A stretch of DNA of 64,000 bases from an uncultured Actinomycetes bacterium (GCA_963713435.1 CAVQLU010000001.1:86247-150246), one strand, 5' to 3'. Counted from the first letter of the stretch, positions 201 through 64,000 are shown. A program made the numbers and translations. Notes: a model not told the origin generated them from the sequence alone.

Positions 201-773
201 TCAGACGTTCGTTCGCTCGTCGGACAGCGACTCGCGCGAGTTCCGCATGAGCAGCTCGATCGCGTCCGCCAGGTGCACCTGGTCGATGTTGTAGTCGCCC
301 CGCTCGACACGGATCTTGTGCGCCTCGAGCAGCACCTGCGAATGGCTGAATCCCGTGGGCGGCTCGAAGCGATACGACGCGAGCTCGATCGTCAGGCCCA
401 GCGGATCCTCGAAGTAGATCGAGTCCATGAAGCCGCGATCCTTCACGCCGCTGTGCGAGATCCCGCGCTCGTCGAGCCGCTCTACGGCCTGGTGGAAGAC
501 GGCCTGCGAGAGCGAGAGCGCGATGTGGTGGACGCAACCCGGATCGGTTGCGGTGCGGGTCGGGTCGGGCGTCCGCGACTCGTCGGTGAAGACCGTGATC
601 AGGCGGCCGTCGCCGGGCTCGAAGTAGAGGTGGCTCTCACCCGGGTTGTCGAGATTGGGCTGCTCGAACACGAACGGCATGCCGAGCAGGCCCTCCCAGA
701 AGTCGATCGACGTCTGCCGGTCGGCGCCCACGATCGTGATGTGGTGGACGCCCTGGCTCTGAAGCTTCCGCAT
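201..773 (-). CDS. VOC/glyoxalase family protein
   Basis: GVHHITI..FWEGLLGM, HLYF, GCVHHIAL, SIYFEDPLGLTIELA motifs. Confidence 0.85.
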   Translation of the reverse strand: MRKLQSQGVHHITIVGADRQTSIDFWEGLLGMPFVFEQPNLDNPGESHLYFEPGDGRLITVFTDESRTPDPTRTATDPGCVHHIALSLSQAVFHQAVERLDERGISHSGVKDRGFMDSIYFEDPLGLTIELASYRFEPPTGFSHSQVLLEAHKIRVERGDYNIDQVHLADAIELLMRNSRESLSDERTNV

Positions 774-786
774 GTGCGACCTCGGC

Positions 787-2094
787 TTAGTGTTCGACGA
801 GCTTCGATTTGTATTCGCTGCGCTGAAGACTGCCCCAGGGCACCAGCTCGACGCGGGCCTGCACGATGAGAACGCTGCGCAGCCGCTCGCGGATCTCTTC
901 GGCGAGCCCGTCGTCGGCCGCGGCCTCGCGGGCGAGCTCGACGCTCACCGGCAGCGGCGGCTCCTGCTTGACGCCCGGGGACTGCGGCCGCACCAGGATG
1001 TGGCCGCTGACCCGCGGTGCGAACCCGCTCACGACCTCGCGCACCGCGGAGGGGAAGACGTTGACGCCGCGCACGATCAGCATGTCGTCGGTACGCCCGA
1101 TGCAGCGCACCCGCGGGCCGGTGCGACCGCACGCGCACGGGCTCATGCGCACCTGTACGTGGTCGCGCGTGCGGAAGCGCAGGAGCGGCGCGCCGCGATG
1201 CCGCAGGTGCGTGAGCACGAGCTCGCCGGTCGCGCCATCCTCCAGCTGCGACCGCGGCGCCCGTCTCGGGATCGATCAACTCGGGGTGGATGAAGCCGCG
1301 CGCTCCCAGGTGCATCCCGTCCTGCTGCTCGCACTCGCCCCACAGCGAGACCCCGATGTCGCCGATGCCCATAGCCTCGGTGACCTTCGCGCCCCAGCCT
1401 TCCTCGAGCTTCTCCCTGAAGGACGGCTCACCGCCGCCCGGCTCGCCCGCGACGAGGATGCGCTGCACGCTCGAGGCTGGCAGATCGATGTTGCGATCGG
1501 CCGCCCACTCGATCAGGTACTTCGGCGTACGAAGGCGTGAGCACCGCGGCCTCGGGACGCAGCAAGTCGATCGAGAGCATCAGGCGCTCGCTGTTGCCGG
1601 TTCCGACCGGGATGTGGCAGAGCCCGATGCGGTCGAACGACGCGAGCGCCGCGCCCGCGACGAACGGCCCGGCGTTGTAGGTCGAGACGATGCGCTGGCC
1701 CGCGACGATGCCGGAGGCCGCGTAGCTCCGCGCCGAGGCGGTGATCCAGTTGTCGAGATCGGCGGCCGTGAGCGGGACGAAGCTGGGCGTGCCGGTCGTG
1801 CCGCTGGTGGAGTAGACGCGGACGATCTCCTCGCGCGTGGCGCAGAGGTGCTCGCCGATCGGATTCTCGGGCGTGCAGCGCTCGCGCAGCTCGCGCTTGT
1901 CGGTGAGCGGCAGCGCCGCGATGCCGGCCAGGCCCCCCGCAGCGGCTGCCGAGCCGAATCCGGCAGCCGCGAGCTTGTCGCGGTAGAACGCCGAGCGTTC
2001 GAACAGGTAGTCGAGTCTGCGAGCGGTAGGAGGCGTCGTCGATCGCGAGCTGCTCGGCCCACGGCAGCGCCTCGACCTCGGGTGCGAGCATCAC
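787..2094 (-). CDS. Phenylacetate-CoA ligase (PaaK)-family AMP-forming ligase, split by several frameshifts
   Basis: Pieces in different frames: MMLAPEVEALPW..., YSTSGTTG P-loop (~1790-1815), ILVAGEPGG/EAMGIGD, PLLRFRTRD, GRTDDMLIVRGVNVFPS. Confidence 0.8.
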
Positions 2095-2885
2095 GGCGCG
2101 GCACCCGCCGGCGGCTCGTAGGAGATGGCCTCCTCGGCCCTACCGGCCATGAGGAAGCCGATCGGCTGCTGCTGCTCCTCGGCCAGGTGCGCGAGCAGGC
2201 CCGCCGTGCGGGCCAGCACCGGAATGGCCTTGACGCTCGCGGCCGGGAAGCCGAGGTCGAGCATCACCGCGGCGATCGGCATGGAGACGTTCATCGTCAG
2301 CGGCTTGCCCCAGGCCTCGGCCACGGCGACGCGGAAGTCGCGCGCGAGGCGCACGTGCGGGCCGCTGATGCCGCGCGCGTCGGCGAGCTCGAGGATGCGC
2401 TCGGCACGCGGATCGAGCGGCCGGTGTACCGGATGCCCGAACCCCGGCGCCCGCTCACCTTCGGCGTGGATCGCCCGGGCCAGCTCGCCGGCGACGGCCG
2501 GCGGCTCGCCGCCCGCGGCCACCTTCGCCTGTGCCTCGGCGAGCAGCCGGGCGCACACCTCGGCGGTGCCGAGGATGACCGGTCCGCAGCCCAGGATCCC
2601 GGCGGCCACCGCACCCTGCAGCGAATCGGGATCGGCCGCCAGCGTCATGCGCGCGGCGACGTTGGTGGGCATCATCCCGTGCTCGGCGATGGCGACGAGC
2701 ACGAGGTCGAGGAAGTAGCGCTGGTCGTCGGTCGGCTCATCGCCGGTGAGCAGCAGGTAGAAGTACTCGCTGAAGCTCAGCCTGCCCATGACGTCGCCGC
2801 AGAGGTCGCGCCCCCGCACTTCGACCCGGTCGGGATAGGCCTGGCAGATGTGGCTGACAGGAGCCGTCGCCTTGCCGATCTGCAT
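2091..2885 (-). CDS. Citryl-CoA lyase / citrate synthase-like protein
   Basis: VRGRDL..MGRLSFSEYFYLLLTG, AEHG, PGFGHPVHRPLDPRA, MNVS, ARTAGLLAHLAEE. Confidence 0.8.
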   Translation of the reverse strand: MQIGKATAPVSHICQAYPDRVEVRGRDLCGDVMGRLSFSEYFYLLLTGDEPTDDQRYFLDLVLVAIAEHGMMPTNVAARMTLAADPDSLQGAVAAGILGCGPVILGTAEVCARLLAEAQAKVAAGGEPPAVAGELARAIHAEGERAPGFGHPVHRPLDPRAERILELADARGISGPHVRLARDFRVAVAEAWGKPLTMNVSMPIAAVMLDLGFPAASVKAIPVLARTAGLLAHLAEEQQQPIGFLMAGRAEEAISYEPPAGAAP

Positions 2886-2927
2886 CGCCGACGAGTCTAC
2901 CCACAAGCGCTGAGTAGGCTTCGCGAC

Positions 2928-3738
2928 GTGACTGCCCTCTCTCTGCCTCAGATCGTCGACCTCGAGCAGTACCCGATCGACCGGCTCGACGAACCGGCCG
3001 GCCGCGCGCTGATCGAGCGCGCGCGCACCGCGCTCCACGCGGTCGGCGCCTGCGACCTGCCCGGTTTCCTACGCCCTGAGACGACGACGGTCGCCGTCGA
3101 GAGCGCGCTCTCGCTGCACGATCAGGCGTACCGAACCGACCAGACGCACGACATCGAGTTCTCCGGCCTGGCACCCGAGTCCCTGCCCGAAGACGACCCG
3201 CGTCGCGTGCGCATCCGCTCGGCCAAGGAGGGCACGGCGTTCGACGCCATCCCCGCCGACTCGCCCGGTCCGCCTCCTGTACGAATCCGACGAGCTCCTG
3301 CGCTTCGTCAGCGCAGCACTCGAGCTCGAGCCGCTCTACCGCTCGGACGATCCGCTCGGCGCGCTGAACTACATGTACTACCTGCCCGGCGACGAGCTCG
3401 GCTGGCACTTCGACAACGCCGACTTCGTCGTGACCCTGATGCTCCAGGCCCCCCACTCCGGCGGCGGCTTCGAGTTCGCGCCGATGCTGCGCTCCGCCGA
3501 TGACCGCAACGACGAAGGCGTCCGCGCCCTCCTCGCCGGCACAAGCGACCGCGTCCGCACGATGTCGGGAGCCCCCGGCACCCTGGCCCTCTTCCGGGGC
3601 CACTGGAGCCCGCACCGAGTCACACCGGTCGAAGGCAACCAGATGCGAGTAAACGCCGTCCTCTCCTACGCAAGAACCCCAGGCCAACGCCTGAAAGAAG
3701 AGACCTACCGCCTCTTCTACGGGCGAATCCCCACCTAG
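2928..3738 (+). CDS. Fe(II)/2-oxoglutarate-dependent oxygenase, BesD/HalD-like fold (frameshift near 3270)
   Basis: N-part IVDLEQYPID in one frame; C-part LGWHFD...GGGFEF...LFRGHWSPHRVTPV...R gives the HxD..H triad. Confidence 0.7.
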
Positions 3739-3748
3739 AGCGAACATC

Positions 3749-3991
3749 TGGGGTCTGGCGCGTCCAGGCCGGGTCTGACCCCGCCTGTACGGGCCTGACC
3801 CCGTGTGTACGGGCACGCAACCAAGCCGTTTGCGGCACTTCGGCACCCCGGCCATCCGGATGGGGAGCTTCTCGACTCGCGGCTGCTGAGCTTCGACTTT
3901 CCGCATGCCCAGTGGCGTTGCGGCCGAAAACGGACACCTGGGGTCAGACCCGTACAGGTGGGGTCAGACCCCGCCTGTACGGGCCAGACCC
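3749..3991. repeat. Two ~53-bp imperfect palindromes built from GGGGTC(A/T)GACCCC units (REP-like)
   Basis: 3749-3802 and 3939-3991 each fold back on themselves and share GACCCCGCCTGTACGGGCC. Confidence 0.75.
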
Positions 3992-38370: not shown

Positions 38371-39171
38371 CTAGGCAGTCAGCGCGACCGCGGCCTCGGG
38401 CGTGGCGGCATGCAGGCTGAAGCTCTCTTCGAGGTACAGGCGCACGACCTTGTCGTCGTGCGATAGGTAGCCGATCGACACGTCCTGGCCCGAGTCGAAG
38501 ATGAAGTCGCCGCCGCGCAGGCTGAGGACCACGGCTCCGCTCACGCCGGGCGCCCACACGAGCGGGCCCTCGACGATCTTGCGCAGATGCTCCAGCAGCG
38601 GATAGCCGCCGTGCTCGGCCGTCTCGATCACGCGCCGGTACTGATCGCTTCCGAGCGCGATGCCATAGGGGCCGCCGACGCCGCTCTGCAAGAGGCGCTC
38701 GACCGCCGCCGCAACCGGCCGCGGGTATCCGTCCGGATCCTTGCCGAGCCGTATCGCGGCATGTGGCGTCGTTTCGGCGATCCCGCTGATCGCTCCCTGC
38801 CAGCCGTGGAAGACCGCCGTGTTCTCGGCCACCGCGAGTTCATGAGCGGCGGTGTCGAGCGGTTCGAGGTCGGCGTCGTCGGCGCCGCGATCGGCATCGC
38901 GGAGCTCGTCTCTCGAGAGCTCGAAGGTCGCGCGCAGCTCGACGAGCGGCAGCACGCGCCGGCGGATGCCGGACACGCCTCCGGTCGGCGCTTTCGCAAG
39001 CGGCTCCGTGCGCCCGAGATTGGTCGACGAGTGCTGCCAGCCGTGCGGGCCCGAGAAGTCGACCAGCTTGCGGGCGGCCAGCGCCGGCGTCAGGCGCTCG
39101 CGCGCCTCGTCATCGAGCAACTGCCAGCCGGACTCGCTGATCGGCGCCAGCTCGCGCAGCAGATGGTTCAT
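38371..39171 (-). CDS. Family 1 encapsulin shell protein (linocin M18-type)
   Basis: MNHLLRELAPIS..W, ARKLVDFSGPHGW, RGGDF...GQDVSIGY, LYLEESF. Confidence 0.92.
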   Translation of the reverse strand: MNHLLRELAPISESGWQLLDDEARERLTPALAARKLVDFSGPHGWQHSSTNLGRTEPLAKAPTGGVSGIRRRVLPLVELRATFELSRDELRDADRGADDADLEPLDTAAHELAVAENTAVFHGWQGAISGIAETTPHAAIRLGKDPDGYPRPVAAAVERLLQSGVGGPYGIALGSDQYRRVIETAEHGGYPLLEHLRKIVEGPLVWAPGVSGAVVLSLRGGDFIFDSGQDVSIGYLSHDDKVVRLYLEESFSLHAATPEAAVALTA

Positions 39172-40199
39172 CGTGCTTCCTCTCTCAGGCTTCCGATGGC
39201 GAGCGAGCCGTCGCTTGCGGCGCCGGCCTCCGCGGGCACAACCTCCGAGGTCGACACGGGAGCGGCGCCCGGTACCGGTGGGTCATCGATGAAGTCGGCG
39301 CTCGGCACGAAGAACAGGTTGCCGGTCACCGCGGTGGAGAAGTCGAGGATCCTGTCGTAGGTGCCCGGCGGATTGCCGACGAACATGTTCGTCAGCATCT
39401 CCTCGGTCACCTCGGGGTAGCGCGCGTAGCCGATGAAGTACGTCCCGAATTCGGCCGCGCCGACGCTGCCGAACGGCATGTTCAGGCGCCAGATCTGACG
39501 CTCGTCGCCGTCGCCGTCGACGATCGTGTTGAGCGCGACGTGCGAGTTGGCGGGCTTCTGCTCGTCGGGGAGCTCGATGTCGCTGAGCTTCGTGCGTCCG
39601 ATCGCCTGCTCCTGCTCCTCGACCGGGAGCGCGTCCCACTCGACGAGGTCGTGCAGGTACTTCTGAACGATCACGTAGCTGCCCCCGGCGAAGGCGGGAT
39701 CCTCGTCTCCGATCAGGACCGCGTCGCGCGCCGCCTCGCCCTCGGGGTTCTCCGTTCCGTCGACGAACCCGAGCAGGTCGCGCTCGTCGAACGACCGGAA
39801 GCCGTGCACCTCGTCGACTACCCGGCCGTGTCCGGCGAGCCGGCCGGTCAACCGGTACGCGAGCTCGAAGCAGACGTCCAGCCGATGTGCGCGGATGTGG
39901 AAGAGCAGATCGCCCGGCGTCGCGGGAGCGCGATGCACCTGGCCGGCGAACCCGGGGAACGGGTGGAGACCCTCGGGCGGCGGCACGCCGAAGAGACGAT
40001 CCCACGCAGCAGCCCCGATACCGACCACGCAGGTGAGCTCGCTCTCGGGTATCCGGAAGCCGACCGACCGCCTGAGTCCGTTGACGCCCGCGATCAGGTC
40101 GCGGACCGCGTCCTCGCCGCCGGGCCCCACGGTCGCGGTGAGGAAGATCGCCGCCTCCGTGAGCGGAGCCAAGACGGCTTGGGGCTCAGGCTCCGGCAT
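39168..40199 (-). CDS. DyP-type peroxidase, encapsulin cargo
   Basis: TPGDLLFHIRA, LLGFVDGTENP, GGSYVIVQKYLH; C-terminal targeting peptide SDGSLAIGSLR. Confidence 0.92.
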   Translation of the reverse strand: MPEPEPQAVLAPLTEAAIFLTATVGPGGEDAVRDLIAGVNGLRRSVGFRIPESELTCVVGIGAAAWDRLFGVPPPEGLHPFPGFAGQVHRAPATPGDLLFHIRAHRLDVCFELAYRLTGRLAGHGRVVDEVHGFRSFDERDLLGFVDGTENPEGEAARDAVLIGDEDPAFAGGSYVIVQKYLHDLVEWDALPVEEQEQAIGRTKLSDIELPDEQKPANSHVALNTIVDGDGDERQIWRLNMPFGSVGAAEFGTYFIGYARYPEVTEEMLTNMFVGNPPGTYDRILDFSTAVTGNLFFVPSADFIDDPPVPGAAPVSTSEVVPAEAGAASDGSLAIGSLREEAR

Positions 40200-48790: not shown

Positions 48791-49651
48791 TCAGACCGCG
48801 TCAGGCTCCAACCCGATCCCGCCCCACACGATCCGTTCCCAGCCGTGTTCAGGCAGACCCATCTCGGCCCGTTGCCCGGGGGTCATCGTCGCAATGTGGG
48901 CGCGAGCGGTGCGCGCGGCCTCGATCATCGAGTCGTGCAGCAGCGTCTCCTGCGACGTCGAGCCGGCGGGCGCCGCATCCAACCAATCGGTCAGCCACGC
49001 TTGCAGCGACGGTGCGATCTCACGCAGCACCATTCGAAAGACGATCTCGCCGTCGTCTTCGATCTCGTCGTAGTCGCTCTCGAGGATGCGACCCGTGGAG
49101 GTATCGAGACAGAAGTAGTACCCCTCCTCGACCTGAACCAGCGGGAGCCGGTCATCGGGCCAGCTATCGACCTCTGCCTCATCCGGGGGCGACGCCTTCA
49201 GATGGCGGTATGTGCTGAGGAGCTCCCCGGCGGAGAGCAGGCCGCTTCCGGGGCCGAAACCGCCGTTGGCGACTTCCAGATAGACGCGGCGCAGGAAGGA
49301 GGGCAATGGGACCCCGAGCTGCGACTGCACATCGTCGAGGGCAGCTCTTGTCGCCGGCGGAGCCAGCGGAGCCTCCGCCGGCGTCGACATGTCAACCTCG
49401 ATCTGGCGCGCTCGCGTATGGATCGCATCATCGACCGGCGAGCCGGACTGGATCGAGTCGACCAGCTGCGCCAGCGCGCCGGCCGCCGATGCGACTCCGA
49501 GCCTGAGCTCCCCGGCCGACAGACCGCTGAGGCTCTGGTCGAACCGAGTCGGTTGCGCGTCCTTCCGCCGGCGCGGATCTCGCGCCCTCTGGCGCAGGCG
49601 TTCTAGGAGCGTGTCATCGCCGGTATCCACGAGTATCACGCTAGTGGACAA
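48791..49651 (-). CDS. SMI1/KNR4 (SUKH) domain protein
   Basis: LGVPLPSFLRRVYLEVANGGFGP, CLD, SLQAWLTDW; start uncertain. Confidence 0.7.
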   Translation of the reverse strand: MSTSVILVDTGDDTLLERLRQRARDPRRRKDAQPTRFDQSLSGLSAGELRLGVASAAGALAQLVDSIQSGSPVDDAIHTRARQIEVDMSTPAEAPLAPPATRAALDDVQSQLGVPLPSFLRRVYLEVANGGFGPGSGLLSAGELLSTYRHLKASPPDEAEVDSWPDDRLPLVQVEEGYYFCLDTSTGRILESDYDEIEDDGEIVFRMVLREIAPSLQAWLTDWLDAAPAGSTSQETLLHDSMIEAARTARAHIATMTPGQRAEMGLPEHGWERIVWGGIGLEPDAV

Positions 49652-54481: not shown

Positions 54482-56340
54482 ATGAAGAATCGCGTTCGAC
54501 ACAACGACACCCGCAAGGCTCGGCCGGCGCGCCTGGCGGCTACGGCGATCGCCGTGACCGCTGTCATCGCCGGCGCGAGCGGGATCGCGGCCGGACAGGC
54601 CAACGCCGCGTCGTCCCACCAGACCGACAAGCGCTCGCATCCGTACAAACAGATCAAACTCAGGCACCCGCAACTCAAGCACGCCACGCTGAGGGTCGAG
54701 GGCACCCGGCAGAGTGACAGGATCGCGCTTCGCCTGAAGGCCGGCCGGCCCGACATTCTCCAAGTCGACGTGGGTGACGACGGCTCGCCCGACTTCAGCT
54801 TCAAGCGCAGATACATAGCCAAGATCGCCGTCTACGCCCGCGCCGGCGACGACCTCGTCCGCATCGATGACAGCAACGGCGTCTTCACCGACAGCATCGC
54901 GACGACGATCGACGGTGGCGCCGGAGACGACAACCTCGCCGGGGGTGCCGGAGTCGAGAAGTTGCTCGGCGGCGACGGCAACGACACGATCGATGGGAAC
55001 GGAGGCAACGACCTGGCGCTCATGGGCGCAGGCGACGACACCTTCGTGTGGGATCCGGGCGACGGCAGCGACACTGTCGAAGGCCAGACCGGCAGCGACA
55101 CGATGCGCTTCAACGGCGCGGCCGCCGCCGAGCACATCGACCTGTCCGCCAACGGAAACCGGCTCAGGTTCTTCCGCGACGCCGGCAACATCACCATGGA
55201 CACCAACGGCCTCGAAACGGTCGACTTCAACGCACTCGGCGGCGCCGACACGATCACCGTCAACGACCTCAGCGCCACCGACGTCCGTAACGTCAACACC
55301 GACCTCGCCGGCACACCCGGCGGCAGCACCGGCGACGGCCAGGCCGACCAGGTCATCGTCAACGGCACCAACCGCAACGACGCAATCACCGCGGCGGGAA
55401 GCAACGGCGCGGTCAACGTCACGGGGCTAGCAGCGACAGTGAGCATCACAAACGCCGAAGCCACCAACGACACGCTCGCAATCAACGCCCTCGACGGCAA
55501 CGACACCGTCGACGCCTCCGCACTCTCTGCTCAGACGATCGCGACGACGATCGACGGTGGCGCCGGAGACGACAACCTCGCCGGGGGTGCCGGAGTCGAG
55601 AAGTTGCTCGGCGGCGACGGCAACGACACGATCGATGGGAACGGAGGCAACGACCTGGCGCTCATGGGCGCAGGCGACGACACCTTCGTGTGGGATCCGG
55701 GCGACGGCAGCGACACTGTCGAAGGCCAGACCGGCAGCGACACGATGCGCTTCAACGGCGCGCCGCCGCCGAGCACATCGACCTGTCCGCCAACGGAAAC
55801 CGGCTCAGGTTCTTCCGCGACGCCGGCAACATCACCATGGACACCAACGGCCTCGAAACGGTCGACTTCAACGCACTCGGCGGCGCCGACACGATCACCG
55901 TCAACGACCTCAGCGCCACCGACGTCCGTAACGTCAACACCGACCTCGCCGGCACACCCGGCGGCAGCACCGGCGACGGCCAGGCCGACCAGGTCATCGT
56001 CAACGGCACCAACCGCAACGACGCAATCACCGCGGCGGGAAGCAACGGCGCGGTCAACGTCACGGGGCTAGCAGCGACAGTGAGCATCACAAACGCCGAA
56101 GCCACCAACGACACGCTCGCAATCAACGCCCTCGACGGCAACGACACCGTCGACGCCTCCGCACTCCACGCGAACGCGATCAAGCTCGCGATCGATGGCG
56201 GCGCCGGCGACGACAAGCTGACCGGAGGCGCCGGGAACGACAGCCTGTTCGGCCGCGATGGCGACGACGTGCTGATCGGAGGGCTTGGCCTGGACGTCCT
56301 CGACGGCGGCTCGGGCAGCAACATCCTGACACAGGACTGA
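54482..56340 (+). CDS. Secreted calcium-binding protein with RTX-like GGxGxD repeats (1-nt frameshift near 55760)
   Basis: Signal peptide; GGAGDD/GGDGND/GGSG nonapeptide repeats; GAGGAG RBS. Confidence 0.85.
54896..56166 (+). repeat. Near-identical tandem duplication, about 630-bp unit with 642-bp period
   Basis: 54896-55525 versus 55538-56166; the only difference seen is one missing G near 55760. Confidence 0.9.
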
Positions 56341-56349
56341 CCACCACCA

Positions 56350-56390
56350 CGCGCTTCACCCGTGGGCCGAACGGTCCCGGGTGAAGCGCG
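56350..56390. terminator. GC-rich hairpin after the RTX gene
   Basis: CGCGCTTCACCCG...CGGGTGAAGCGCG, between convergent genes. Confidence 0.5.
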
Positions 56391-56591
56391 GCCGCACCGC
56401 TCGCCATTCGCGCGCGGCTGCTGCTCAACTCTCTACCGCGAACGGATCCGTGCGCGCATGGAAAGGCCTCGCGTCGCCAGCGAGCCCAGTGCCGTCCCCG
56501 TCTTCCAACCCCGACTAGCCCACCGGCGAAGCCCGGCCGCACCCGCTGGTTACTCGCGATCTTCTGTACCCGGCGGCGAAGACGGCTGCAG

Positions 56592-58058
56592 TTAGTCCTG
56601 CGTCGCGATGATGCTCGGCCAGATGTCGGCGAGCGTGCCGCGCAGGGTGCAGCGGGCGATCGGCTGGCCGCCCTCGTCGCTGTCGTTGGCTGCGGAGATG
56701 CGTGCGACGACGCGATACCTGCGGCAGAAGCTCGCGGTGTGGCGCGAGTAGCCGACGAGGAGCGCCCGCCGCCCTACTACCCTTGGTCGCCAATAGCGCA
56801 TCGTCACATCCGCCGACGCGACCGGCGGCAGAGCGCGGCCGAATAGCACGAGTGCTCCCGCCTCGCCGTAGTTGTCCGCGATGATCACGTCGGTGCCTCT
56901 CGCGTGCTGCTCGACGAGGCGCGCGTATGCAGGCCAGCCGACCTCCGACTGGTAGTCACCGCGAGCTTTCAGAACTCCGTGCCGGACGGCTGTGTGCAGC
57001 GGTAGCACCGGCAGCGAGATCGGCAGGACGAGAAGGCCGACCGTCACGAACACTGCGCCGGCCAGTTGGAGACGGCGACGTGTCGCCCAGCGGTCGAGCG
57101 GGATCGCACCCGCGGCGAGCGCGAACACCAGCACGGGCAGCGCGTAGTAGGACTTCCCCCCGAGGACGAAGTACGCGACGACCGTGCCGACAATCGTCCA
57201 GCCGAACGGGCGCAGCGTGCGATCGCGGATGAGCAACATGACTCCGGCGACGGCGACCGGTACTGCCGCTCCCGTGAGCAGAATCACGTTCGCGATGAAC
57301 ACCGGCCGCGTTTCGTCGCTTCCGCTCGGCGGCGGGTGGAGGAACCAGTGCACACTCGTCCAGCCGTGGCCGGCCTGCCAGATGAGGTTAGGGACGAGCA
57401 GGACGGCCGCGATCGCCACGGCCAGCGGAAGGCCCCGCGTGCGCAGGACGTCACGACGCCAGACGAGGAACGTCGCGAACAGCAGGACGATGACGACGGC
57501 GAGGGTGTACTTCGTCTCGAGGCCGATGCCGAGGGCGATTCCGAGCAGCGGCCAGGAGCCGCGGCCGAGTGTGAGCCGCAGCGCGAGCCAGAGGACGATC
57601 ATCGTCGTCAGTTGGTCGAGCGCGACCGGCTGGAAGAGCAGATTGGTCGCAAGCATCGCCGGACCGAACCCGATCATCACGGCTGCGAGCGTCTGCGCCC
57701 GGCGCGACGCGCCGAGCTCACGGGCGACAAAGGCCCCGACGAGCACTGTTCCGGCGCTCGCGAGGATCGTGGAGGCGCGCAAGCCGACGAGCGACCAGCC
57801 GAACAGGCCTCGAGCCAGCGCCGCAAGCAGCGCCGTCACGGGTGGGAACTCGACATAGCCGCCCTGCAGATGCAGACCGGCGACCGCGTAATACAGCTCG
57901 TCGCGGTGCCAGCCGTAGCGTCCCGCGACGGCGAGCTCGAGCGCGCACTTCAGCGCGACGACGAGGAGCACGGGGCCGGCCGCGAAGACGACCGCGCCCT
58001 TCTCTGCGCGGGTGTGCGCCACGGCCACCAAGCCTAGGAGCTGGGAGTCGCATGACAC
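56592..58058 (-). CDS. Glycosyltransferase family 39 / ArnT-like membrane protein
   Basis: RYGWHRDELYY, GYVEFPP, GLETKYT, PNLIWQ, GGKSYY, NYGEAGA. Confidence 0.82.
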   Translation of the reverse strand: MSCDSQLLGLVAVAHTRAEKGAVVFAAGPVLLVVALKCALELAVAGRYGWHRDELYYAVAGLHLQGGYVEFPPVTALLAALARGLFGWSLVGLRASTILASAGTVLVGAFVARELGASRRAQTLAAVMIGFGPAMLATNLLFQPVALDQLTTMIVLWLALRLTLGRGSWPLLGIALGIGLETKYTLAVVIVLLFATFLVWRRDVLRTRGLPLAVAIAAVLLVPNLIWQAGHGWTSVHWFLHPPPSGSDETRPVFIANVILLTGAAVPVAVAGVMLLIRDRTLRPFGWTIVGTVVAYFVLGGKSYYALPVLVFALAAGAIPLDRWATRRRLQLAGAVFVTVGLLVLPISLPVLPLHTAVRHGVLKARGDYQSEVGWPAYARLVEQHARGTDVIIADNYGEAGALVLFGRALPPVASADVTMRYWRPRVVGRRALLVGYSRHTASFCRRYRVVARISAANDSDEGGQPIARCTLRGTLADIWPSIIATQD

Positions 58059-58213
58059 GCCGGAGCCCCTGTAACAAACTCAACCGCGAAGCTGTCGGCG
58101 CGATCCCGAGTAAAAGGTGAGGCCCTACCTTTCACGGAGGTGCTCCATGAAGTTTGCCTCAGCCAAGACTGCACGGCCACCGCGACGTTGGTGCCAGTTA
58201 CGGGGGTTCCCGC

Positions 58214-58374
58214 GAAGCCCTCTCAGGGACTCGAACCCTGGACCCCCTCCTTACCATTTCGGCGCAAACGGTTGCGGCGGGTTGCATCTAGCCGCTTATC
58301 CCGCTGATTTCGCCCGCGCGTGGGCTCGAGAGTTGCGATTGGTTGCGGGCGCTGGTTGACATCCCGTTGACATC
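58214..58374 (-). mobile_element. att-like site: 3' half of tRNA-Thr(GGT) followed by paired GGTTGC and GTTGACATC boxes
   Basis: Minus strand 58257-58214 reads ATGGTAAGGAGGGGGTCCAGGGTTCGAGTCCCTGAGAGGGCTTC (GGT anticodon, T-arm CAGGG-TTCGAGT-CCCTG, acceptor strand); no 5' half; GTTGACATC at 58355-58363 and 58366-58374. Confidence 0.75.
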
Positions 58375-58614
58375 GCAACATCGCGCCGCTCCGGGAGCAG
58401 GACGCTCGCAGCCGCACGCTCCATGGGTGCAAGACGTGGCGTTGGGCACCGGGGAGCCTACTCGGGCCCTGACGATCCCTTCGGCGCGGGTCGCTCAGAG
58501 GCATTGCGGCGCCTGCGGGTGGACATCGCCGGTCGCTCGGCGCGCTTCCGCTACCAGACGGTCGACGGGAAGGTGCGCGACGACTTCCGCCTGCGCTGCA
58601 CTGCAAACGGATGA
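58374..58614 (+). pseudogene. Decayed 3' fragment of a paralog of the metallophosphoesterase at 45019-46047
   Basis: Aligns by eye to about 45760-46041; LRVDIAGRSARFRYQTVDGKVRDDFRLRC is almost identical; multiple small deletions in the 5' part. Confidence 0.85.
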
Positions 58615-58631
58615 CCCTTCTCTGCTCGGGA

Positions 58632-60427
58632 TCAGGCAGGTTGGTGAGGCATCGCGAGCGTGCGCCGCCGCAAGCGGTACATCCTGAAGCGGCCGTAATC
58701 CTTCGCAGCGGGCATGCTGCCGACGTAGTCGCACCCCAGCCCCGGACGCTGAGCAAGCTCGAGGGCGGCCGCGAACGGCTCGGTCACGTAGACCGCGCCG
58801 GGCGGCGTCACCGGTTCGATCCGCGCGGTGCGGCTGACGTGCGACCCGGTGAAGGCCCGTGCCTTCAGCACGGGCTCGTCGAGCGGGAACACCGGGCCAA
58901 CGTGGACGCCGATTCGCAGCGCAATCTGGTCGGTCACCTCGAGCGCACGCAGGTCGATCGCCGCGATCGCATACTGCAGATCCAGGGCGCACTCGGCGGC
59001 CAAGACGGTGTCGGTAAACACGACGTAGAGGGCATCCCCCCAGGTATTCCGGTGCTCGATCGCGTCCTCGTACCGTTCGAGCACGGTGGCGAAGGCGCTC
59101 AGAACCTGCCGCAGGACCAGGGGACCTGCTCGTCGGCGAGCTTGGAGAATCCCTTGACATCTGCGAACAGCAGCGCCCGGACGACTCGGCCAGAGGTCGC
59201 CGCCGCTCCTCCGCTGATGGACGGAAGCGGCTCGGTGGAGCGTTCGGTCGGGATTACCGAGACGACCTGTCCCGAGGCGCGCCAGGTGGTGATATCGAGA
59301 GCAGTCCCGGCACCGCCGAGGTCGGCCGCCCCGTCCCAGACGGCGAGCTGACGGACGCTCGCGTCGAGGTAGCGGGCGCGGAGCAGCGCAAGGCCCATTG
59401 CCAGCTCGGCTCCATACCGGTAGAGAGCGTCGTCGGGCACGAACGCGTTGTCCGTTGCGTAGGTGACATTGAACGCGGCGTCCAGGCAGCGGTGGAAGCG
59501 CTCGACCCAGGCGGGACCGGATGAGGCAACAGAGCTCTGGATGAACGCATCTCGCACGAACGGGAGGACGATGTGGAGCTCCGCTCCACGAGCGAGCAGT
59601 GCCTCGGCCCACATGATGTCCGCGCCGCTCGCCAGCGAGCCGTAGGCGTAGCGCGGGGCGTCGCGCATCAACTCCGCCTCGATGAGCGCGGCGACGTCCT
59701 CCTCCGCCTCGGCCCGAAAGCGCCCGGACATCCCTGGGGCGGCTATGCGATGCCCGCAGAAGTGCGCTACCCCGGGGCCCGCGAGGATGCCGATGATCTC
59801 GGGATCGGCGCCGGTCAGGGCGCACACGAGGCGTAACTGACGGCGCGTGGTCGCGAGCGAGGAATAGTCACCGCCGTGCAGTTGCGCCGCTCGCCCGAGC
59901 GCCACACGAGCCGCGCCCTCGTTTCCGAGCAGAAGCTGGGCTTCCCCCGCGGTCGCGGCTGCGTAGTACGAGCGCTCGCCGGTCCGGTCGAGCACCTCGA
60001 GTGCGATACGCGCCAGCGTGCGTGCACGCTCGGGCTCGCCTGCCACGAAGCTGAGGGTCGCGGCGTTGATCGCGGCGTAGTAGCCGCGCGTGCGAGCGTG
60101 GATCGCCAGATAGAGATCGCGCGCACGGATAGCCTCCCCTCGCCGCGCGGCCACCGTGCCGGCGAGCGCGAGATCCTTGGCGATCCGGGCGCCCAGCGCT
60201 GCGACTTCCTCCTCCTCGGAGGCCTTGAGCCCGTAGCGCGCGAACCGCCGGGCTGCCTCATCCGTCGCGCCGGCCCGCGCCAAGGCGAGCACCGCACGAT
60301 GTTTCAGCCAGAGATCGGCCGGGCGCTCTGCGAGACCCTGCTCCGCAAGATCGAACGCGGTCAGCAGTTCCCCTCGCCGCTCTGCGTCCTTGACAGCCTC
60401 GAGCCAGTCGGTAGCCGACCTGCTCAC
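58632..60427 (-). CDS. TPR (TPR-S/TRAF-binding-like) + SLOG-like + class III nucleotide cyclase protein (frameshift near 59110)
   Basis: GYYAAINAATL, YYAAATAGEA; FCGHR..YGSLASGADI..LHIVLPF; LFADVKGFS, NTWGDA, LRIGVHVGPV, RTARIE. Confidence 0.8.
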
Positions 60428-60455
60428 GCCACCGCCGCGATCGCGGACCGGAGCC

Positions 60456-62033
60456 TCACCCGAACTGGTGGTGCCAGAAGTCGTAGAAGGAGGCAATGCC
60501 GGCGTGGACGCTCGACTGCTGCTCGGCCTTCACGAACATGTTCGCGGCCGTGTCGGTCCAGACGATCACGGAGCACGTCGGGCCGTTGACGTCGGTCAGC
60601 TGCATCTTGGCGACCAGATCGCACTGCCCGTCCGCCTGGTAGCAGGCATAACGACCGCTGACCGGACCCATCACCCCGCCGCCCGCCTCGTGGCTCCACG
60701 GCCCCTCTCCCCGCCAGCGAGTGCGGTTGCAGCCTCCCGTGGCCGCCTTCAACTGGGGGTCGGGAGTTCCACCGTGCGCCGCTACTGAGCCGGGTCCATG
60801 CAGCTTGTAGATCGGCACGAGATGCGCCAGATCGATGAAGCGGTCGAGATGCACCAGCGTACGTCCGTGCTTCGGATCGTTGAAGTCGCAGTTGATGGTC
60901 GCGACGCCACCGGCGTGTTCGGTGTTCGCAAACTTGCACGATCCACGGCGGATCGTCTTGGGGATTGCGAGCCAGAGCTTCGCCTGGTCGGCGTCTGCAT
61001 TCGCCGGCACATCGGTGACGTCGGCAGTCGCGGCAGTGTCGGTGTTCGATCCGGTGGTGTCCACGAGCGCTTCTCCAGTCGACACGGGCAGGTTCGAGCT
61101 ACCCGTCGAGTGGTCGCTACCGAGCTCATACGCGCCCACGAGCGCCAGCGCGAGGATGGCGACGATCCCCAGACCGGCCAGCCCTATGAGCCAACGGGGA
61201 GCGTCGGTCAGTCCGCCCCGGCTGCGCCCGCCTGACCCATGACCGCCGGAGCCGTCTTGCCGCCCTCCCGCTCCCCCTCCACCTCCGGCAGGCGGCGCCG
61301 AGCTGCCGGCTCCGCCAGCCGTCGCGAGAGGCGCCATCGGCGCGGCAGCCGGACGAGTCGGCGACTGCGAACCCGGCGGGGCCTGCGAATGTCCGGGTGT
61401 CTCCGCGCGGTCATCCGAAGTGCCGGGCGCGCGCCTCGCCTCATCCTCGCTCGGCGCTGCAGCCCTGGGCATCCCCGCCTCCGCCGCGATCGCCGGCTCT
61501 GTGGGGATTCGGGATCGGCTTCCCTCGAGGCTTCCCAACTCGAGTGGAGGCGGCGCCTCAGCCTGGCTTTCTCCCGCTCGGATTCGCTCGAGCAGGTTCA
61601 TGAGCCGTGCGACGTCGTATTGCCAGCGCGGGCCGTCGGACATCTCGACGGCGTTTCGCATCGCCAGTGGAGCGAGCGTCCCGGGCAGGTCGTCTGCAAC
61701 CGGCATGATCGCCCCGGCGATGAGTGCCGGGACGACGCGGATGTCGCGTCCGAGTGCCGCCTCGACCTCGAGGCGCACGTAGTCATCGGAGCGGCTGAGG
61801 CGACGCTCGCCTCGGCTGTCGGCAGCCGTCAGCCAGCGCGGGCCAATCATGACGAACAGCACGTCGCAGGCCGACACTGCCGTCTCGATCGCGCGCTTGA
61901 ACTCGACGCCGATGTCGATCGTGTCGACATCCATGAAGACGTTGTCCTGGCCGAGTTTGTCGGCGAGCGCGTCATACAGGCGGCCGGCTTGGCCACTCGT
62001 GTCTTCACGCCGGTAGCTGATGAAAACGCGCAC
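60456..62033 (-). CDS. Membrane-anchored TIR domain protein with Cys-rich extracellular domain
   Basis: VFISYRREDT, VFMDVD, IGPRW, DYVRLEV; Pro/Ala/Gly linker; TM helix; six Cys in the C-terminal domain. Confidence 0.85.
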   Translation of the reverse strand: MRVFISYRREDTSGQAGRLYDALADKLGQDNVFMDVDTIDIGVEFKRAIETAVSACDVLFVMIGPRWLTAADSRGERRLSRSDDYVRLEVEAALGRDIRVVPALIAGAIMPVADDLPGTLAPLAMRNAVEMSDGPRWQYDVARLMNLLERIRAGESQAEAPPPLELGSLEGSRSRIPTEPAIAAEAGMPRAAAPSEDEARRAPGTSDDRAETPGHSQAPPGSQSPTRPAAAPMAPLATAGGAGSSAPPAGGGGGAGGRQDGSGGHGSGGRSRGGLTDAPRWLIGLAGLGIVAILALALVGAYELGSDHSTGSSNLPVSTGEALVDTTGSNTDTAATADVTDVPANADADQAKLWLAIPKTIRRGSCKFANTEHAGGVATINCDFNDPKHGRTLVHLDRFIDLAHLVPIYKLHGPGSVAAHGGTPDPQLKAATGGCNRTRWRGEGPWSHEAGGGVMGPVSGRYACYQADGQCDLVAKMQLTDVNGPTCSVIVWTDTAANMFVKAEQQSSVHAGIASFYDFWHHQFG

Positions 62034-62502
62034 GGCCTAGGACGTGTCGTCCGGTCGCGAGACCATCGCCATGTGCTGTCTCCGCGGCGCGCCAGCCCAC
62101 CTGCGTCGACCGAATCGGCGCTCAGGCACGCGGTTTCGCGTCACTTCCGCCTCCGGCAAGCCCGCCGGGATCATCGCGTGAGGGTAGCCCGCGCAGACAG
62201 GCTTGTCCACCCCCGTCATCGCGTTCGCCTCTGGATCACGGCGAACGCGCGCCAGAGGTTCCTGCTCGCCCTGAATGCTGCTGCCGTCCGAGCTGACAAG
62301 CATGACCACGGTGTCGATAGGCGCGCTGGGCATACAACACTCTCTCTTCGCCGACCCGGGAGGCCTCGCGCGGACCCTAGATGTGAGTCCGACCGGCCGC
62401 CGTGACCGTGCGCACGGTGCGAGATTGACGCCTGTCACACGCCCGCACCGCGCCGGGGAGGTGGAAGCCACCGGAGATCGCGCGCTCGCCACGTTCGACG
62501 AT

Positions 62503-62886
62503 CTACGTATCGATCGTCTGTGAGAGCTCGACGAGGTTTCCGTCAGGATCGCGAACGTAGAGCGAGGCAATGGCTGACATCGCGCCTGTGCGTTGGACCG
62601 GACCGAGCTCGACCGGTATGCCGGCGCGCGCAAGCGACTCGGCCACCTCTCCGAGACTGTCAGACACCAAGAGACAGATGTCCGCCGACCCGCGCGTGGG
62701 GCGCGCTGCAGAGGGCGCCAGCTCCGCACCTGCTTGATGGAGGTTGAGCTTCTGACTTCCGAAACGGAGAGCCTCTCGACCCTCGCCAAACGTCTCTCGC
62801 CACATACCCAGCGACTCGTAGAACCGGACGGTCGCCTCGATGTCCGAAACCGTCAGAACGAGGTGGTCGAGCGACCGGATGTGCAT
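62503..62886 (-). CDS. VOC family protein (copy 2, close paralog of 44531-44914)
   Basis: Same 127-aa length and mostly identical sequence. Confidence 0.9.
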   Translation of the reverse strand: MHIRSLDHLVLTVSDIEATVRFYESLGMWRETFGEGREALRFGSQKLNLHQAGAELAPSAARPTRGSADICLLVSDSLGEVAESLARAGIPVELGPVQRTGAMSAIASLYVRDPDGNLVELSQTIDT

Positions 62887-63033
62887 GCGCCCAAAGCTAG
62901 CCGAGATGCCCGAGCAGCGGCGCGGGCGACCGGCTGACCGGAGGCGGTGCGCCAGCTGTGCGAGGCGGACTGTTCGACTCCAAACATTTCACTTGTGATA
63001 GCCGCGCGCCGGCGTGGGCTTCCCCTCAGTTTA

Positions 63034-63059
63034 CGAAGCCCTCTCAGGGACTCGAACCC
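63034..63059 (-). mobile_element. Short att-like tRNA-Thr 3'-end remnant
   Basis: CGAAGCCCTCTCAGGGACTCGAACCC is identical to 58213-58238. Confidence 0.65.
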
Positions 63060-63303
63060 ATTCGCCCCACGCAGCGCGTGCTCGCTCGCGCATTGGCAGC
63101 CCGTGCTCACAGCCGCTCACCTGGCAAGGGCTTCGCGTACAACGGGCATTGCCGTTGGAGCTCACGGAGGCCGGAGTTTTCGGTGTAGGCCGACCCCGGA
63201 CTCATCGTCGGGTATCAAAAACGTGCCGCCTCTTGTCCTTCTCTTTGTTGCAAATGTCGCTTGTCCAGCCTATCGTCGCTCGGCTTCGAGCGAAGGAGGA
63301 GGC

Positions 63304-64000
63304 ATGAGCCTCGCGGCGAGCTGGGAGGCTGAGCGTGACGATGCCGAGGTGGTTCGGCTCGCGCTCGTTCTCAATGGCGGCGTGAGCCTCGCGGTCTGGA
63401 TCGGAGGCGTGACGCACGAGCTCGATCGGCTCCGGCGGGCGTTCGAGATGGAGCAGACGAGCACCTACGCTCAACTGCTCCGGTGTCTGGGTTGCGTTGT
63501 GCGGATCGATGTGATCGGCGGGGCGAGCGCGGGCGGTCTGAACGGCGCGATGCTGGCGAGCGCGATCGCCTATGGGCGCTCGCTCGAGACTGCGGGTGAG
63601 ATCGGCGGGGAAGGATCTGCAAGCGCCGGTCCGTGGATGCGCGAGCGCTGGCTCGAGCTCGGCGATCTCGCGCACATCATGCGCAAGCCCTCGAATTCCG
63701 AGCCCGGTCCTTCTTCCCTGCTCGATGGCGATGGCGGCATGCTCGAGCCGCTCCGAGACCTGATCTTCACTGAGCTCGTGCCCAATACCGGGCCGGCGGA
63801 CACGGCGAGATGCCAGCCAGTTACCTACGTTGCTACGACGACGGATGTTGTCGGGGATCCGTCGCGGCGGTTCGACGACTATGGCGCGGAGTTCCGCGAT
63901 CGTGAGCACCGCGCGTTGTTGGAGTTCATTGCTGATCCCAGCAATGAGTGGGCCACGACGCGTGATGACGATTTCGTGCTCAAACGGGGTGCCTACGCAG
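63304..64000 (+). CDS. Patatin-like phospholipase (DUF3376-associated type), truncated by the window end
   Basis: RLALVLNGGVSLAVWIGGV and DVIGGASAGGLNG; AGGAGG RBS. Confidence 0.85.
   Translation, partial: MSLAASWEAERDDAEVVRLALVLNGGVSLAVWIGGVTHELDRLRRAFEMEQTSTYAQLLRCLGCVVRIDVIGGASAGGLNGAMLASAIAYGRSLETAGEIGGEGSASAGPWMRERWLELGDLAHIMRKPSNSEPGPSSLLDGDGGMLEPLRDLIFTELVPNTGPADTARCQPVTYVATTTDVVGDPSRRFDDYGAEFRDREHRALLEFIADPSNEWATTRDDDFVLKRGAYA

Follow-up and report, generated by a model that had tools for sequence, protein, structure and literature searches.

Organization of the two-gene unit

The subject of this study is a pair of adjoining genes on the minus strand of a 64,000-nt stretch of DNA from an uncultured Actinomycetes bacterium (GCA_963713435.1, CAVQLU010000001.1:86247-150246), which we refer to in its whole length as the window. 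Gene 1 encodes a membrane protein with a TIR domain, and gene 2 encodes, in two reading frames, a protein composed of a TPR-S region, a SLOG-like domain and a class III nucleotide cyclase domain; the coordinates of all features are collected in Table 1. Gene 1 ends with a TGA codon (60458-60456), which is followed by 28 nt and by the GTG start codon of gene 2 at 60427, and the latter position matches that of the start in intact homologues. An earlier note, made from the sequence alone, had described a unit of two genes separated by 28 bp, and this layout proved correct at the positions given. The motifs that it had listed for the second protein (FCGHR, GSLASGAD, VLPF, NTWGD and VSRTAR) are all found in gene 2, and across the family they are invariant or nearly so. 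The G+C content varies between 0.64 and 0.74 across 50-64 kb of the window, and a scan for promoters and terminators revealed nothing above the shuffled control.

The membrane TIR protein

The TIR domain of gene 1 is matched by Pfam TIR_2 with E 3.7e-11 (44 bits, cut-off 28). Its best sequence match in the PDB is the TIR domain of SARM1, a weak one (E ~0.05), in which E89 of the segment YVRLEVEAAL pairs with the Glu of WVHKEIVTAL in the SARM1 TIR structures. The Glu of the SARM1 segment KDWVHKEIVTAL, to which E89 is aligned, is the residue that we take to be the catalytic E642. E89 is unchanged in all 21 homologues with the same order of TIR domain, transmembrane (TM) helix and ectodomain that were aligned. 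Thus, a TIR_2 score above the cut-off and an invariant Glu bear out the view that the domain keeps its putative catalytic residue.

The linker that follows the TIR domain is rich in Gly, Pro and Ala and variable, whereas the TIR and C-terminal domains are highly conserved in the alignment of the 21 homologues. The predicted TM helix corresponds to the lone hydrophobic stretch of the protein, WLIGLAGLGIVAILALALVGAY, with basic residues N-terminal to it and a conserved juxtamembrane motif, GGL(S/T)DAPRW, ahead of it. All six Cys residues of the ectodomain are invariant in 21/21 homologues. The single helix and the six-Cys domain noticed earlier are both present. No Pfam family matches the ectodomain, and the ESM Atlas contains no named cluster for it. 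The ectodomain family is small, with 32 matches, two of which are located on Ser/Thr kinases. In these kinases (P0293 and P0300; P numbers denote proteins or protein clusters retrieved in our searches), the juxtamembrane motif, the TM helix and the ectodomain all recur, C-terminal to a cytoplasmic Ser/Thr kinase domain. Because the kinases use the same module, the comparison of sequences supports a receptor topology with the N-terminus inside and the C-terminus outside, and a cytoplasmic output domain that has probably been swapped between TIR and kinase.

Predicted sensor domains of the gene 2 protein

The N-terminal region of the gene 2 protein is matched by TPR-S (PF20308, the "TPR-Sensor" family of Pfam) with 34.5 bits against a cut-off of 27.6. 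The same family was detected in 13/13 members of the protein family, eight of which were also matched by the ASK-type TPR family MAP3K_TRAF_bd. When modelled with AlphaFold2 (pLDDT 81), residues 1-442 form 12 helices up to residue 215 and an alpha/beta domain between residues 219 and 392; together with the TPR-S score, the modelled helices substantiate the helical TPR region of the earlier description. Foldseek matches of this 442-residue model were mostly TPR proteins and OGT, YpsA being the first match of another kind, and the middle domain was therefore modelled alone.

The separate model, based on 107 sequences, reached a pLDDT of 95.8 and a pTM of 0.92. Among the 38 Foldseek matches listed for it (ranks up to 50, with gaps), the best was Bacillus subtilis YpsA (2nx2; E 2.2e-5, TM-scores 0.63/0.66, probability 1.0), followed by DprA (5mll, 4ljk, 3uqz, 3maj), ShosA (8zva) and LOG (5zbj, 5zbk, 5its) structures with probabilities of 0.99-1.0, the value being 1.0 for 5mll, 4ljk, 3uqz, 8zva, 5zbj and 5its. 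The TM-scores of the SLOG matches other than YpsA ranged from 0.36 to 0.47, with 0.46-0.47 for LOG. Chains of methylenetetrahydrofolate reductase also appeared, but their TM-scores were low (0.2-0.3). Judged by its modelled fold, the middle domain is a member of the SLOG superfamily, nearest to the YpsA clade, which agrees with the SLOG-like segment that had been recognized by eye. Residues 215-400 have no match in Pfam or NCBIfam, and a PDB sequence search with the middle domain returned only chance matches (e.g., Sindbis capsid and L21).

Within the family, the SLOG domain is rich in invariant polar residues (H, C, H, D, E and R), and the motifs G263-x-L-A-x-G268-x-D270-x3-A-E275 and FCGH are invariant or nearly so. 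The family is large: searched alone, the middle domain retrieved 2595 representative clusters at E <=0.001 and 1611 at E <=1e-10. The sensor of a TIR-made signal may be TPR-S, the SLOG domain or both, since a TPR of this kind has been proposed as the sensor of cyclic ADP-ribose (cADPR) in type VIII Thoeris.

The class III cyclase domain

In the second reading frame of gene 2, Pfam Guanylate_cyc (PF00211) scores 28.6 bits (cut-off 21.9), and all 13 homologues searched are matched as well. The segments FADVKGFS and NTWGD, carrying the two metal-binding Asp residues, and TARIE, carrying the Arg, can be aligned with their counterparts in 3et6, 3mr7 and 2w01. In place of the transition-state Asn there is a Ser (VSRTAR as against VNxAxR), and in the alignment to 3et6 an Asn occupies the position of the Lys of adenylate cyclases or the Glu of guanylate cyclases, while an Ala occupies the Cys position. 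Here, the functional labels of the cyclase positions (metal Asp, transition-state Arg and Asn, base-specifying pair) are those that we assume to apply.

The atypical residues described in the earlier note are thus present, and NTWGD and HVSRTARIE are unchanged in 13/13 diverse members. Such invariance argues for a pocket that is under constraint and atypical rather than decayed. Since the base-specifying residues are atypical, the base of the cyclic nucleotide is not predictable from them, and the invariant Asn/Ala/Ser pocket may mean a new cyclic nucleotide product.

Conservation of the TIR-cyclase pairing

These data raise the question of whether the two genes stand together elsewhere. A protein search identified 1830 relatives among 8000 candidates scored, and TPR-S is present in 119 of the best 120 (precomputed Pfam). 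A species scan of 185,579 genomes (one per species) revealed 195 genomes with a relative, from which 80 loci with up to 6 kb on each side were kept (L numbers below). A profile trained on these same loci detected a TIR open reading frame (ORF) no more than 6 kb away from the cyclase homologue in 68 of them. The gap between the two genes is <=300 bp in 50 loci, 301-1500 bp in 12 and >1500 bp in six; no TIR was found in the remaining 12, four of which are short contigs (L008, L060, L069, L080). The sole outside control, the rest of the 64-kb window, contained no further TIR match. Two phyla are represented, each of the four possible orientations of the pair is found, and the pairing is seen in many soil bacteria. 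Therefore, the linkage of both gene types, for which the earlier note had suggested a survey of neighbourhoods, recurs well beyond the window.

Neighbouring genes were clustered for the 68 loci in which a simple gene caller had found the cyclase gene. The dominant neighbour, present in 47 loci, is a protein of ~900-1050 amino acids (aa), in which Pfam identified an N-terminal TIR_2 domain followed by WD40 propellers in 5/7 sampled sequences. TIR_2 was confirmed by Pfam in 13/15 partner ORFs, including 5/5 in a further sample; for the partners in L004 and L049, the 25 best-scoring families listed were all WD40 or beta-propeller families. While most loci harbor the TIR-WD40 type, the partner in L005 is a TIR-SIR2 protein, and two Alphaproteobacteria carry a TIR-Sel1 protein (L072) and a 706-aa TIR protein with no other Pfam domain (L068). 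The column of the catalytic Glu is Glu in all 63 partner TIR domains aligned, with ~10 weaker matches standing outside the alignment. Such retention makes it possible to suggest that the partner TIRs are enzymatic.

The TIR-TM-ectodomain type of partner is shared, among the 80 loci, only by L001 and L002 (71% and 69% identity, respectively), and the DNA-level similarity to these two loci is confined to the two-gene unit, the flanks being different. In a quick maximum-likelihood tree of 66 cyclases (midpoint root, for drawing only), the window, L001 and L002 form a clade with SH-aLRT 100, which sits beside cyclases that have long TIR-WD40 partners. The window copy is thus a rare subtype in which a TIR-TM-ectodomain protein takes the place of the usual TIR-WD40 partner.

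Two of the loci are worth describing in their own right. In L005 (8839-13755), the TIR-SIR2 protein and an nSTAND1-WD40 NTPase lie beside the cyclase homologue, with an ATP-binding cassette (ABC) transporter containing a cyclic nucleotide monophosphate (cNMP)-binding domain upstream; L005 resembles an immune system more closely than the window does. In L002 (Gaiellales), a gene upstream of the TIR/cyclase pair (609-3800) encodes a SARP-like protein of 1064 aa that combines Trans_reg_C, BTAD, NB-ARC and TPR with a second class III cyclase domain.

Fusion proteins and cNMP-binding neighbours

A search for fusions, limited to longer proteins, gave 29 matches. One of them is P0318 (1472 aa; a cluster of 3 member sequences from 2 contigs), which unites TPR-S (50-148), cyclase (435-594), TIR_2 (639-744) and Pkinase (892-1138) on one chain. 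Such a natural fusion would fit a model in which the TIR and TPR-S/SLOG proteins form a stable complex, with the TIR as an adaptor or allosteric partner and no diffusible NAD-derived signal passing between the two. A precedent is the BcTir/BcTpr pair, which, according to the available part of the preprint 10.1101/2023.05.26.542521, acts as a complex in which the TPR protein and not the TIR makes the cADPR isomer. We nevertheless regard this explanation as quite unlikely: the Glu kept in 63/63 aligned partners points to enzymatic TIRs, the two genes are found in every one of the four orientations and up to several kb apart, and TPR-S and the YpsA-like SLOG domain both have precedents as small-molecule sensors.

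Other fusions bring in cNMP-binding domains (cNMPBD), which are located directly ahead of TPR-S/SLOG. P0301 has the order MFS-cNMPBD-TPR-S-cyclase, where MFS stands for the major facilitator superfamily; P0302 and, by the precomputed Pfam column, P0303 have the order ABC_tran-cNMPBD-TPR-S; and the order SARP-cNMPBD-TPR-S was found in P0187, P0194 and P0209 (scanned) and in P0305-P0308 (precomputed Pfam column). The last proteins, together with P0170, belong to a group (P0170, P0187, P0194, P0209, P0305-P0308) in which a SARP-type regulator (Trans_reg_C + BTAD) is fused to TPR-S and a SLOG-like domain and the cyclase is absent; most of them also have a cNMP-binding domain, P0170 having none. 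A SARP-TPR-S-SLOG regulator of this type could integrate a cNMP signal with a TIR-type signal. A further group comprises nine clusters (P0309-P0317; ~1160 aa) in which an aromatic amino acid/histidine ammonia-lyase (PF00221) is fused to TPR-S-(SLOG)-cyclase.

Proteins with cNMP-binding domains are also encoded beside the cyclase gene. With a profile trained on the same loci, 46 cNMP-binding ORFs were detected in 984 kb, distributed over 43/80 loci, and not one in the 64 kb of the window. A TIR and a cNMP-binding ORF are present together in 39 loci, and eight loci have neither. The neighbours include Crp-like regulators, a cluster of which is present in 18 loci and often is the next gene, as well as transport proteins (MFS transporters and ABC exporters, some of the latter containing a C39 peptidase domain) and enzymes (a patatin lipase, an FMN dehydrogenase and a pyridine-nucleotide oxidoreductase). 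A cNMP product is suggested by the cNMP-binding proteins, which are enriched beside the gene and fused to the module; a second tier, in which neighbouring proteins would read this product, is supported by the 43 loci and the fusions.

The same data bear on the opposite possibility, namely, that the SLOG domain is itself an enzyme (either an N-glycosidase of the LOG type or one that processes what the TIR makes) and the cyclase-like domain is dead and only binds nucleotides, leaving no second tier. The fold matches include LOG enzymes (5zbj, 5its), the SLOG clades span enzymes to sensors according to the available part of PMC9503650, many polar residues of the domain are invariant, and the cyclase is devoid of the canonical Asn and base-specifying pair. 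However, YpsA and not LOG is the best fold match (TM 0.63-0.66 vs 0.46-0.47), the metal-binding Asp pair and the Arg of the cyclase are invariant, and the cNMP-binding neighbours and fusions are hard to explain without a cNMP product. This scenario therefore appears unlikely to us.

A possible relay between second messengers

We consider it moderately probable that the two-gene module relays one second messenger into another, from TIR through sensor and cyclase to cNMP effectors. The extracytoplasmic Cys-rich domain would sense a stimulus and activate the cytoplasmic TIR across the single TM helix. The stimulated TIR would convert NAD+ to an ADP-ribose-derived signal, most likely cADPR or an isomer of it. 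TPR-S and the YpsA-like SLOG domain of the gene 2 protein would bind this signal and release the C-terminal class III cyclase, which would then make a 3',5'-cyclic nucleotide of unspecified base. In related genomes, this product would be read by nearby cNMP-binding proteins: Crp-type regulators, ABC/C39 exporters, MFS transporters, the patatin lipase and oxidoreductases. A cascade from TIR to cyclase had been the central proposal of the earlier note, and the SLOG fold, the gene linkage and the fusions lend it support. The domain identities, the modelled SLOG fold, the conserved residues, the gene linkage and the fusions are observations; that the TIR acts before the cyclase, and what the ligand, the product and the role in the cell may be, we infer.

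The order is suggested by the distribution of domains, because the TIR partners carry domains of sensor type (WD40, Sel1, TM-ectodomain) and the cyclase protein carries the predicted NAD-signal sensors. The reverse order is realized in Pycsar/Pucsar systems, and the available part of 10.64898/2026.08.12.744502 describes cyclase-made cGMP that activates cNMP-binding-TIR effectors; by this precedent, the cyclase would signal first and the TIR protein would be the effector. No cNMP-binding domain is present in any of the TIR partners scanned, which carry WD40, Sel1, SIR2 or TM-ectodomain parts instead, and the ligand-sensor domains sit on the cyclase protein rather than on the TIR protein, which renders the reverse order highly improbable.

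A number of observations weigh against the relay from TIR to cyclase. Gene 2 is frameshifted in the window sequence. The cyclase, without the canonical Asn and without the Lys/Asp or Glu/Cys pair, could be inactive or a nucleotide-binding domain only, and the signal may be bound by TPR-S, by SLOG or by both. The placing of the catalytic Glu by way of SARM1 has an E value of only ~0.05. Six of the 12 loci with no TIR have ~6 kb of sequence on both sides, and the TIR and cNMP-binding counts, obtained with self-trained profiles, stand without a genome-wide background. No cNMP-binding ORF occurs in the 64 kb of the window or within 6 kb in L002. The neighbours of the unit encode a glycosyltransferase, a glyoxalase and an RTX-like protein and do not constitute a defence island. 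Known defence models do not recover the unit either: PADLOC, which had been suggested as a check, produced no match to the cyclase protein and only weak ThsB-like matches to the TIR (ThsB1, 34.7 bits); NCBIfam likewise gave no useful match for the gene 2 protein, and its Thoeris ThcB4 model scored 38.8 bits against a cut-off of 220. Finally, each enzymatic and binding step of the relay is deduced from domain content and gene linkage.

As to the biological role, we lean towards a regulatory or conflict-sensing function with transcriptional and transport outputs, in preference to classic abortive infection. More tentatively, one may imagine a three-layer relay in which receptor-type TIRs on a chassis shared with Ser/Thr kinases turn an outside cue into an NAD-derived messenger, this messenger opens the TPR-S/SLOG-gated cyclase, and a non-canonical cyclic nucleotide acts on Crp-type regulators, exporters and lipases; the relay would then serve physiological or social signalling and not only abortive phage defence. 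This broader scheme is speculative, and we would not assume it.

To our knowledge, the known bacterial TIR signalling systems end in a cell-killing or cell-arresting effector. If the relay exists, a TIR signal that switches on a cyclase would pass one messenger on to another and couple NAD-derived signalling to cNMP signalling, transcription and transport. The subtype in the window, with its TIR behind a membrane receptor shared with kinases, suggests that TIR signalling can report extracellular cues.

Relation to known systems

By analogy, the family would work like a Thoeris-type system in which the effector has been replaced by a second signal generator. Features of Thoeris that are present are a TIR with a catalytic Glu and an adjoining gene with predicted sensor domains (TPR-S and the SLOG fold); absent are a cell-arresting effector, the output being a class III cyclase, and a match to a curated Thoeris model. 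The closest known systems are Thoeris of types VIII and I.

In type VIII Thoeris, as described in the available part of 10.64898/2025.12.03.692087, canonical cADPR activates ThsI, an effector with a TPR and a CMP-hydrolase-like domain, and the TPR is the proposed sensor; the same source states that Burroughs and Aravind had earlier predicted the ThsI-type TPR as a sensor of TIR signals. The likeness to our unit lies in a TIR gene that adjoins a gene with a TPR region, which in the window is of the Pfam "TPR-Sensor" family. In contrast to type VIII, the output in the window is a class III cyclase and not a nucleotide hydrolase, a SLOG domain is inserted between TPR and output, and the TIR partners carry WD40 or TM-ectodomain sensors; the distinction from ThsI is made by description. 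In 10.64898/2025.12.03.692087, the word "cyclase" occurs 3 times and in no case refers to an effector of the class III cyclase type.

Type I Thoeris (ThsB TIR with ThsA SIR2-SLOG) similarly pairs a TIR enzyme with a SLOG-domain protein, and the SLOG domain of ThsA binds 3'cADPR (available parts of 10.64898/2025.12.03.692087 and PMC9503650). The effector differs, being a cyclase in the window and a SIR2 NADase in ThsA, and the SLOG domain of the window is nearest to YpsA in fold; no ThsA structure is among the Foldseek matches listed for the middle domain. According to the accessible part of PMC9503650, the YpsA-like SLOG clade includes cADPr sensors. The identity between YpsA and the middle domain is only 14%. 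The conserved segment from G263 to E275 may correspond to the Gly-rich loop behind strand 2 and the acidic residue of the following helix in YpsA. Whereas the middle domain is part of a multidomain protein, YpsA stands alone and has been linked with cell division. In PMC6459960, the legend of Figure 1A gives "A/G_cyclase" as one of the domain contexts in which the YpsA family occurs.

Pycsar and Pucsar, as far as the accessible parts of the sources describe them, resemble the unit in a class III-type cyclase, a cyclic mononucleotide read by cNMP-binding proteins and the involvement of TIR domains. There, the cyclase acts first, and the effector is a TIR joined to a cNMP-binding domain, whereas the TIR of the window is free of a cNMP-binding domain and the cyclase carries N-terminal predicted NAD-signal sensors. 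The window TIR protein also differs from SARM1, as it is membrane-anchored and lacks ARM and SAM domains. Finally, the linker, TM helix and Cys-rich ectodomain are shared with the receptor Ser/Thr kinases P0293 and P0300 of Actinomycetota, the output in the window being a TIR instead of a kinase.

In the literature searched, we found no paper naming both TPR-S and TIR and no experimental study of the family. Of the papers searched, PMC7159879 alone brings TIR, SLOG, cNMP-binding and cyclase together, and its available part contains no description of a TIR/TPR-S-SLOG-cyclase system; domain surveys of the Aravind group may already depict the architecture.

The frameshift in gene 2

Another important question is whether gene 2 of the window is intact. 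Its first frame stops at a TGA (59101-59099), and the cyclase goes on in another frame, as the frameshift near 59110 reported in the earlier note would require. The lesion is indeed present in the sequence, since each of the 24 homologous DNA matches across this position can be aligned only with a gap of 1 nt in the window. Intact homologues of ~594-600 aa read ...FADVKGFSKLADEQVP(Q/L)VLQ... without interruption. Downstream of the site, the frame is open to the usual end of the family, and all family-invariant cyclase residues are kept.

Information on the accuracy of the sequence comes from a gene for an RTX-like calcium-binding repeat protein (HemolysinCabind; 54482-56340, plus strand), ~3.4 kb from the frameshift. 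It contains a direct duplication of 626 nt (54900-55525 and 55542-56166), whose copies are identical in 625/626 positions (BLAST); Tandem Repeats Finder did not detect this duplication of 642-nt period. The sole difference between the copies, a 1-nt gap near 55722 in a run of G and C, splits the gene into two overlapping ORFs and may be either an assembly artefact or the outcome of a very recent duplication plus lesion. In addition, the proteins P0037, P0294 and P0223 from other assemblies contain stretches that depart from the family and run across gene boundaries, which we read as frame changes from indel-prone sequencing. Because of the isolated 1-nt gap in the RTX-like duplication and the apparent frame changes in P0037, P0294 and P0223, the frameshift of gene 2 is probably an assembly error rather than a real lesion, as far as comparison of sequences allows one to judge.

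Alternatively, the window copy may be a dead gene, in which a real 1-nt deletion cuts off the cyclase after residue 442, as part of a remnant in a degraded integrated element. It would fit the frameshift, with its 24/24 gapped matches, the position of the unit between two 26-nt repeats similar to a tRNA 3' end in a region with neither an integrase nor an intact tRNA, and the lack of a cNMP-binding partner in the window. Yet no more than a single base is affected, at a C-run, the frame beyond it continues as far as the normal end with every invariant cyclase residue in place, a second isolated 1-nt deletion lies ~3.4 kb away in an otherwise identical duplication, and the three proteins from other assemblies suggest indel-prone sequencing. 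We therefore hold a dead gene to be possible but doubtful.

Table 1 Features of the two-gene unit and its surroundings in the window
Feature	Position	Strand	Basis
Gene 1: TIR - variable linker - TM helix - Cys-rich ectodomain	60456..62033	-	ORF of 525 aa, Pfam, alignment of 21 homologues
TIR domain, residues 3-138	61620..62027	-	Pfam TIR_2
Codon of putative catalytic Glu, E89	61767-61769	-	Alignment to SARM1 TIR and invariance
Single predicted TM helix, ~residues 281-302	61128..61193	-	Translation; conserved in alignment of 21 homologues
C-terminal ectodomain, ~residues 340-525 (~190 aa), six Cys	60459..61016	-	Alignment of homologues
Intergenic spacer, 28 nt	60428..60455	-	Sequence
Gene 2: TPR-S - SLOG-like - class III cyclase, in two frames	58632..60427	-	Frame A 59099-60427, frame B 58632 to ~59125
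Helical TPR region, residues 5-215	59783..60415	-	Pfam and 12 helices in AlphaFold model
Pfam TPR-S match, residues 25-126	60050-60355	-	PF20308
Predicted SLOG-fold domain, YpsA-like, residues 219-392	59252..59773	-	Model and Foldseek
Class III nucleotide cyclase domain	58632..59191	-	Pfam; alignments to 3et6, 3mr7, 2w01
Frameshift site, one base missing	59116..59124	-	At or beside CCCC run 59120-59123, compared with homologues
Left copy of perfect 26-nt direct repeat	58213..58238	.	tRNA 3'-end-like on minus strand
Right copy of perfect 26-nt direct repeat	63034..63059	.	Repeat search

Flanking repeats and other genes of the window

The unit lies between two perfect direct repeats of 26 nt, 4821 bp apart, whose identity stops at the repeat borders and for which 100 shuffles gave no match. 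The reverse complement of the repeat resembles part of a tRNA, namely, the T-arm with the 3' acceptor strand. Of the ORFs between the copies, those of the cyclase, TIR and glyoxalase genes alone have a base composition of the coding type. The earlier note had seen in these repeats att-like remnants bordering mobile defence or signalling cargo. The perfect repeats are real, but no integrase is encoded between them, ARAGORN identified no tRNA anywhere in the window, and the PADLOC result for the cyclase adds nothing in favour, so that mobile defence cargo is weakly supported. Moreover, Rfam (E up to 1, 56000-64000) has no match to the repeat, and the repeat is missing from all 80 related loci. 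The repeats may plausibly stem from a degraded element whose target tRNA would be located beyond position 64000.

The spacer that separates the TIR and glyoxalase genes contains, in a single copy, a sub-threshold match to the Rfam model CRISPR-DR28 (62185-62208, minus strand; 24.3 bits against 35, E 0.74), which is probably due to chance. Just outside the right repeat, a gene for a patatin-like phospholipase (63304-64000, plus strand; Pfam Patatin E 3.5e-7) runs off the end of the window. A patatin with a cNMP-binding domain is encoded beside the TIR/cyclase pair in L011 and in L063 (the latter by clustering with the ORF of L011). We did not accept the patatin of the window as a member of the system, since it has no significant similarity to the L011 protein; its C-terminus falls outside the window.

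Farther away (38371-40199, minus strand), a gene for an encapsulin shell protein (Linocin_M18, E 4e-78) is located directly downstream of a gene for a DyP-type peroxidase, and the two proteins form a classic encapsulin cargo pair. A protein of the SUKH-1/SMI1_KNR4 family, whose members often are immunity proteins of polymorphic toxin systems, is encoded at 48791-49651 on the minus strand.

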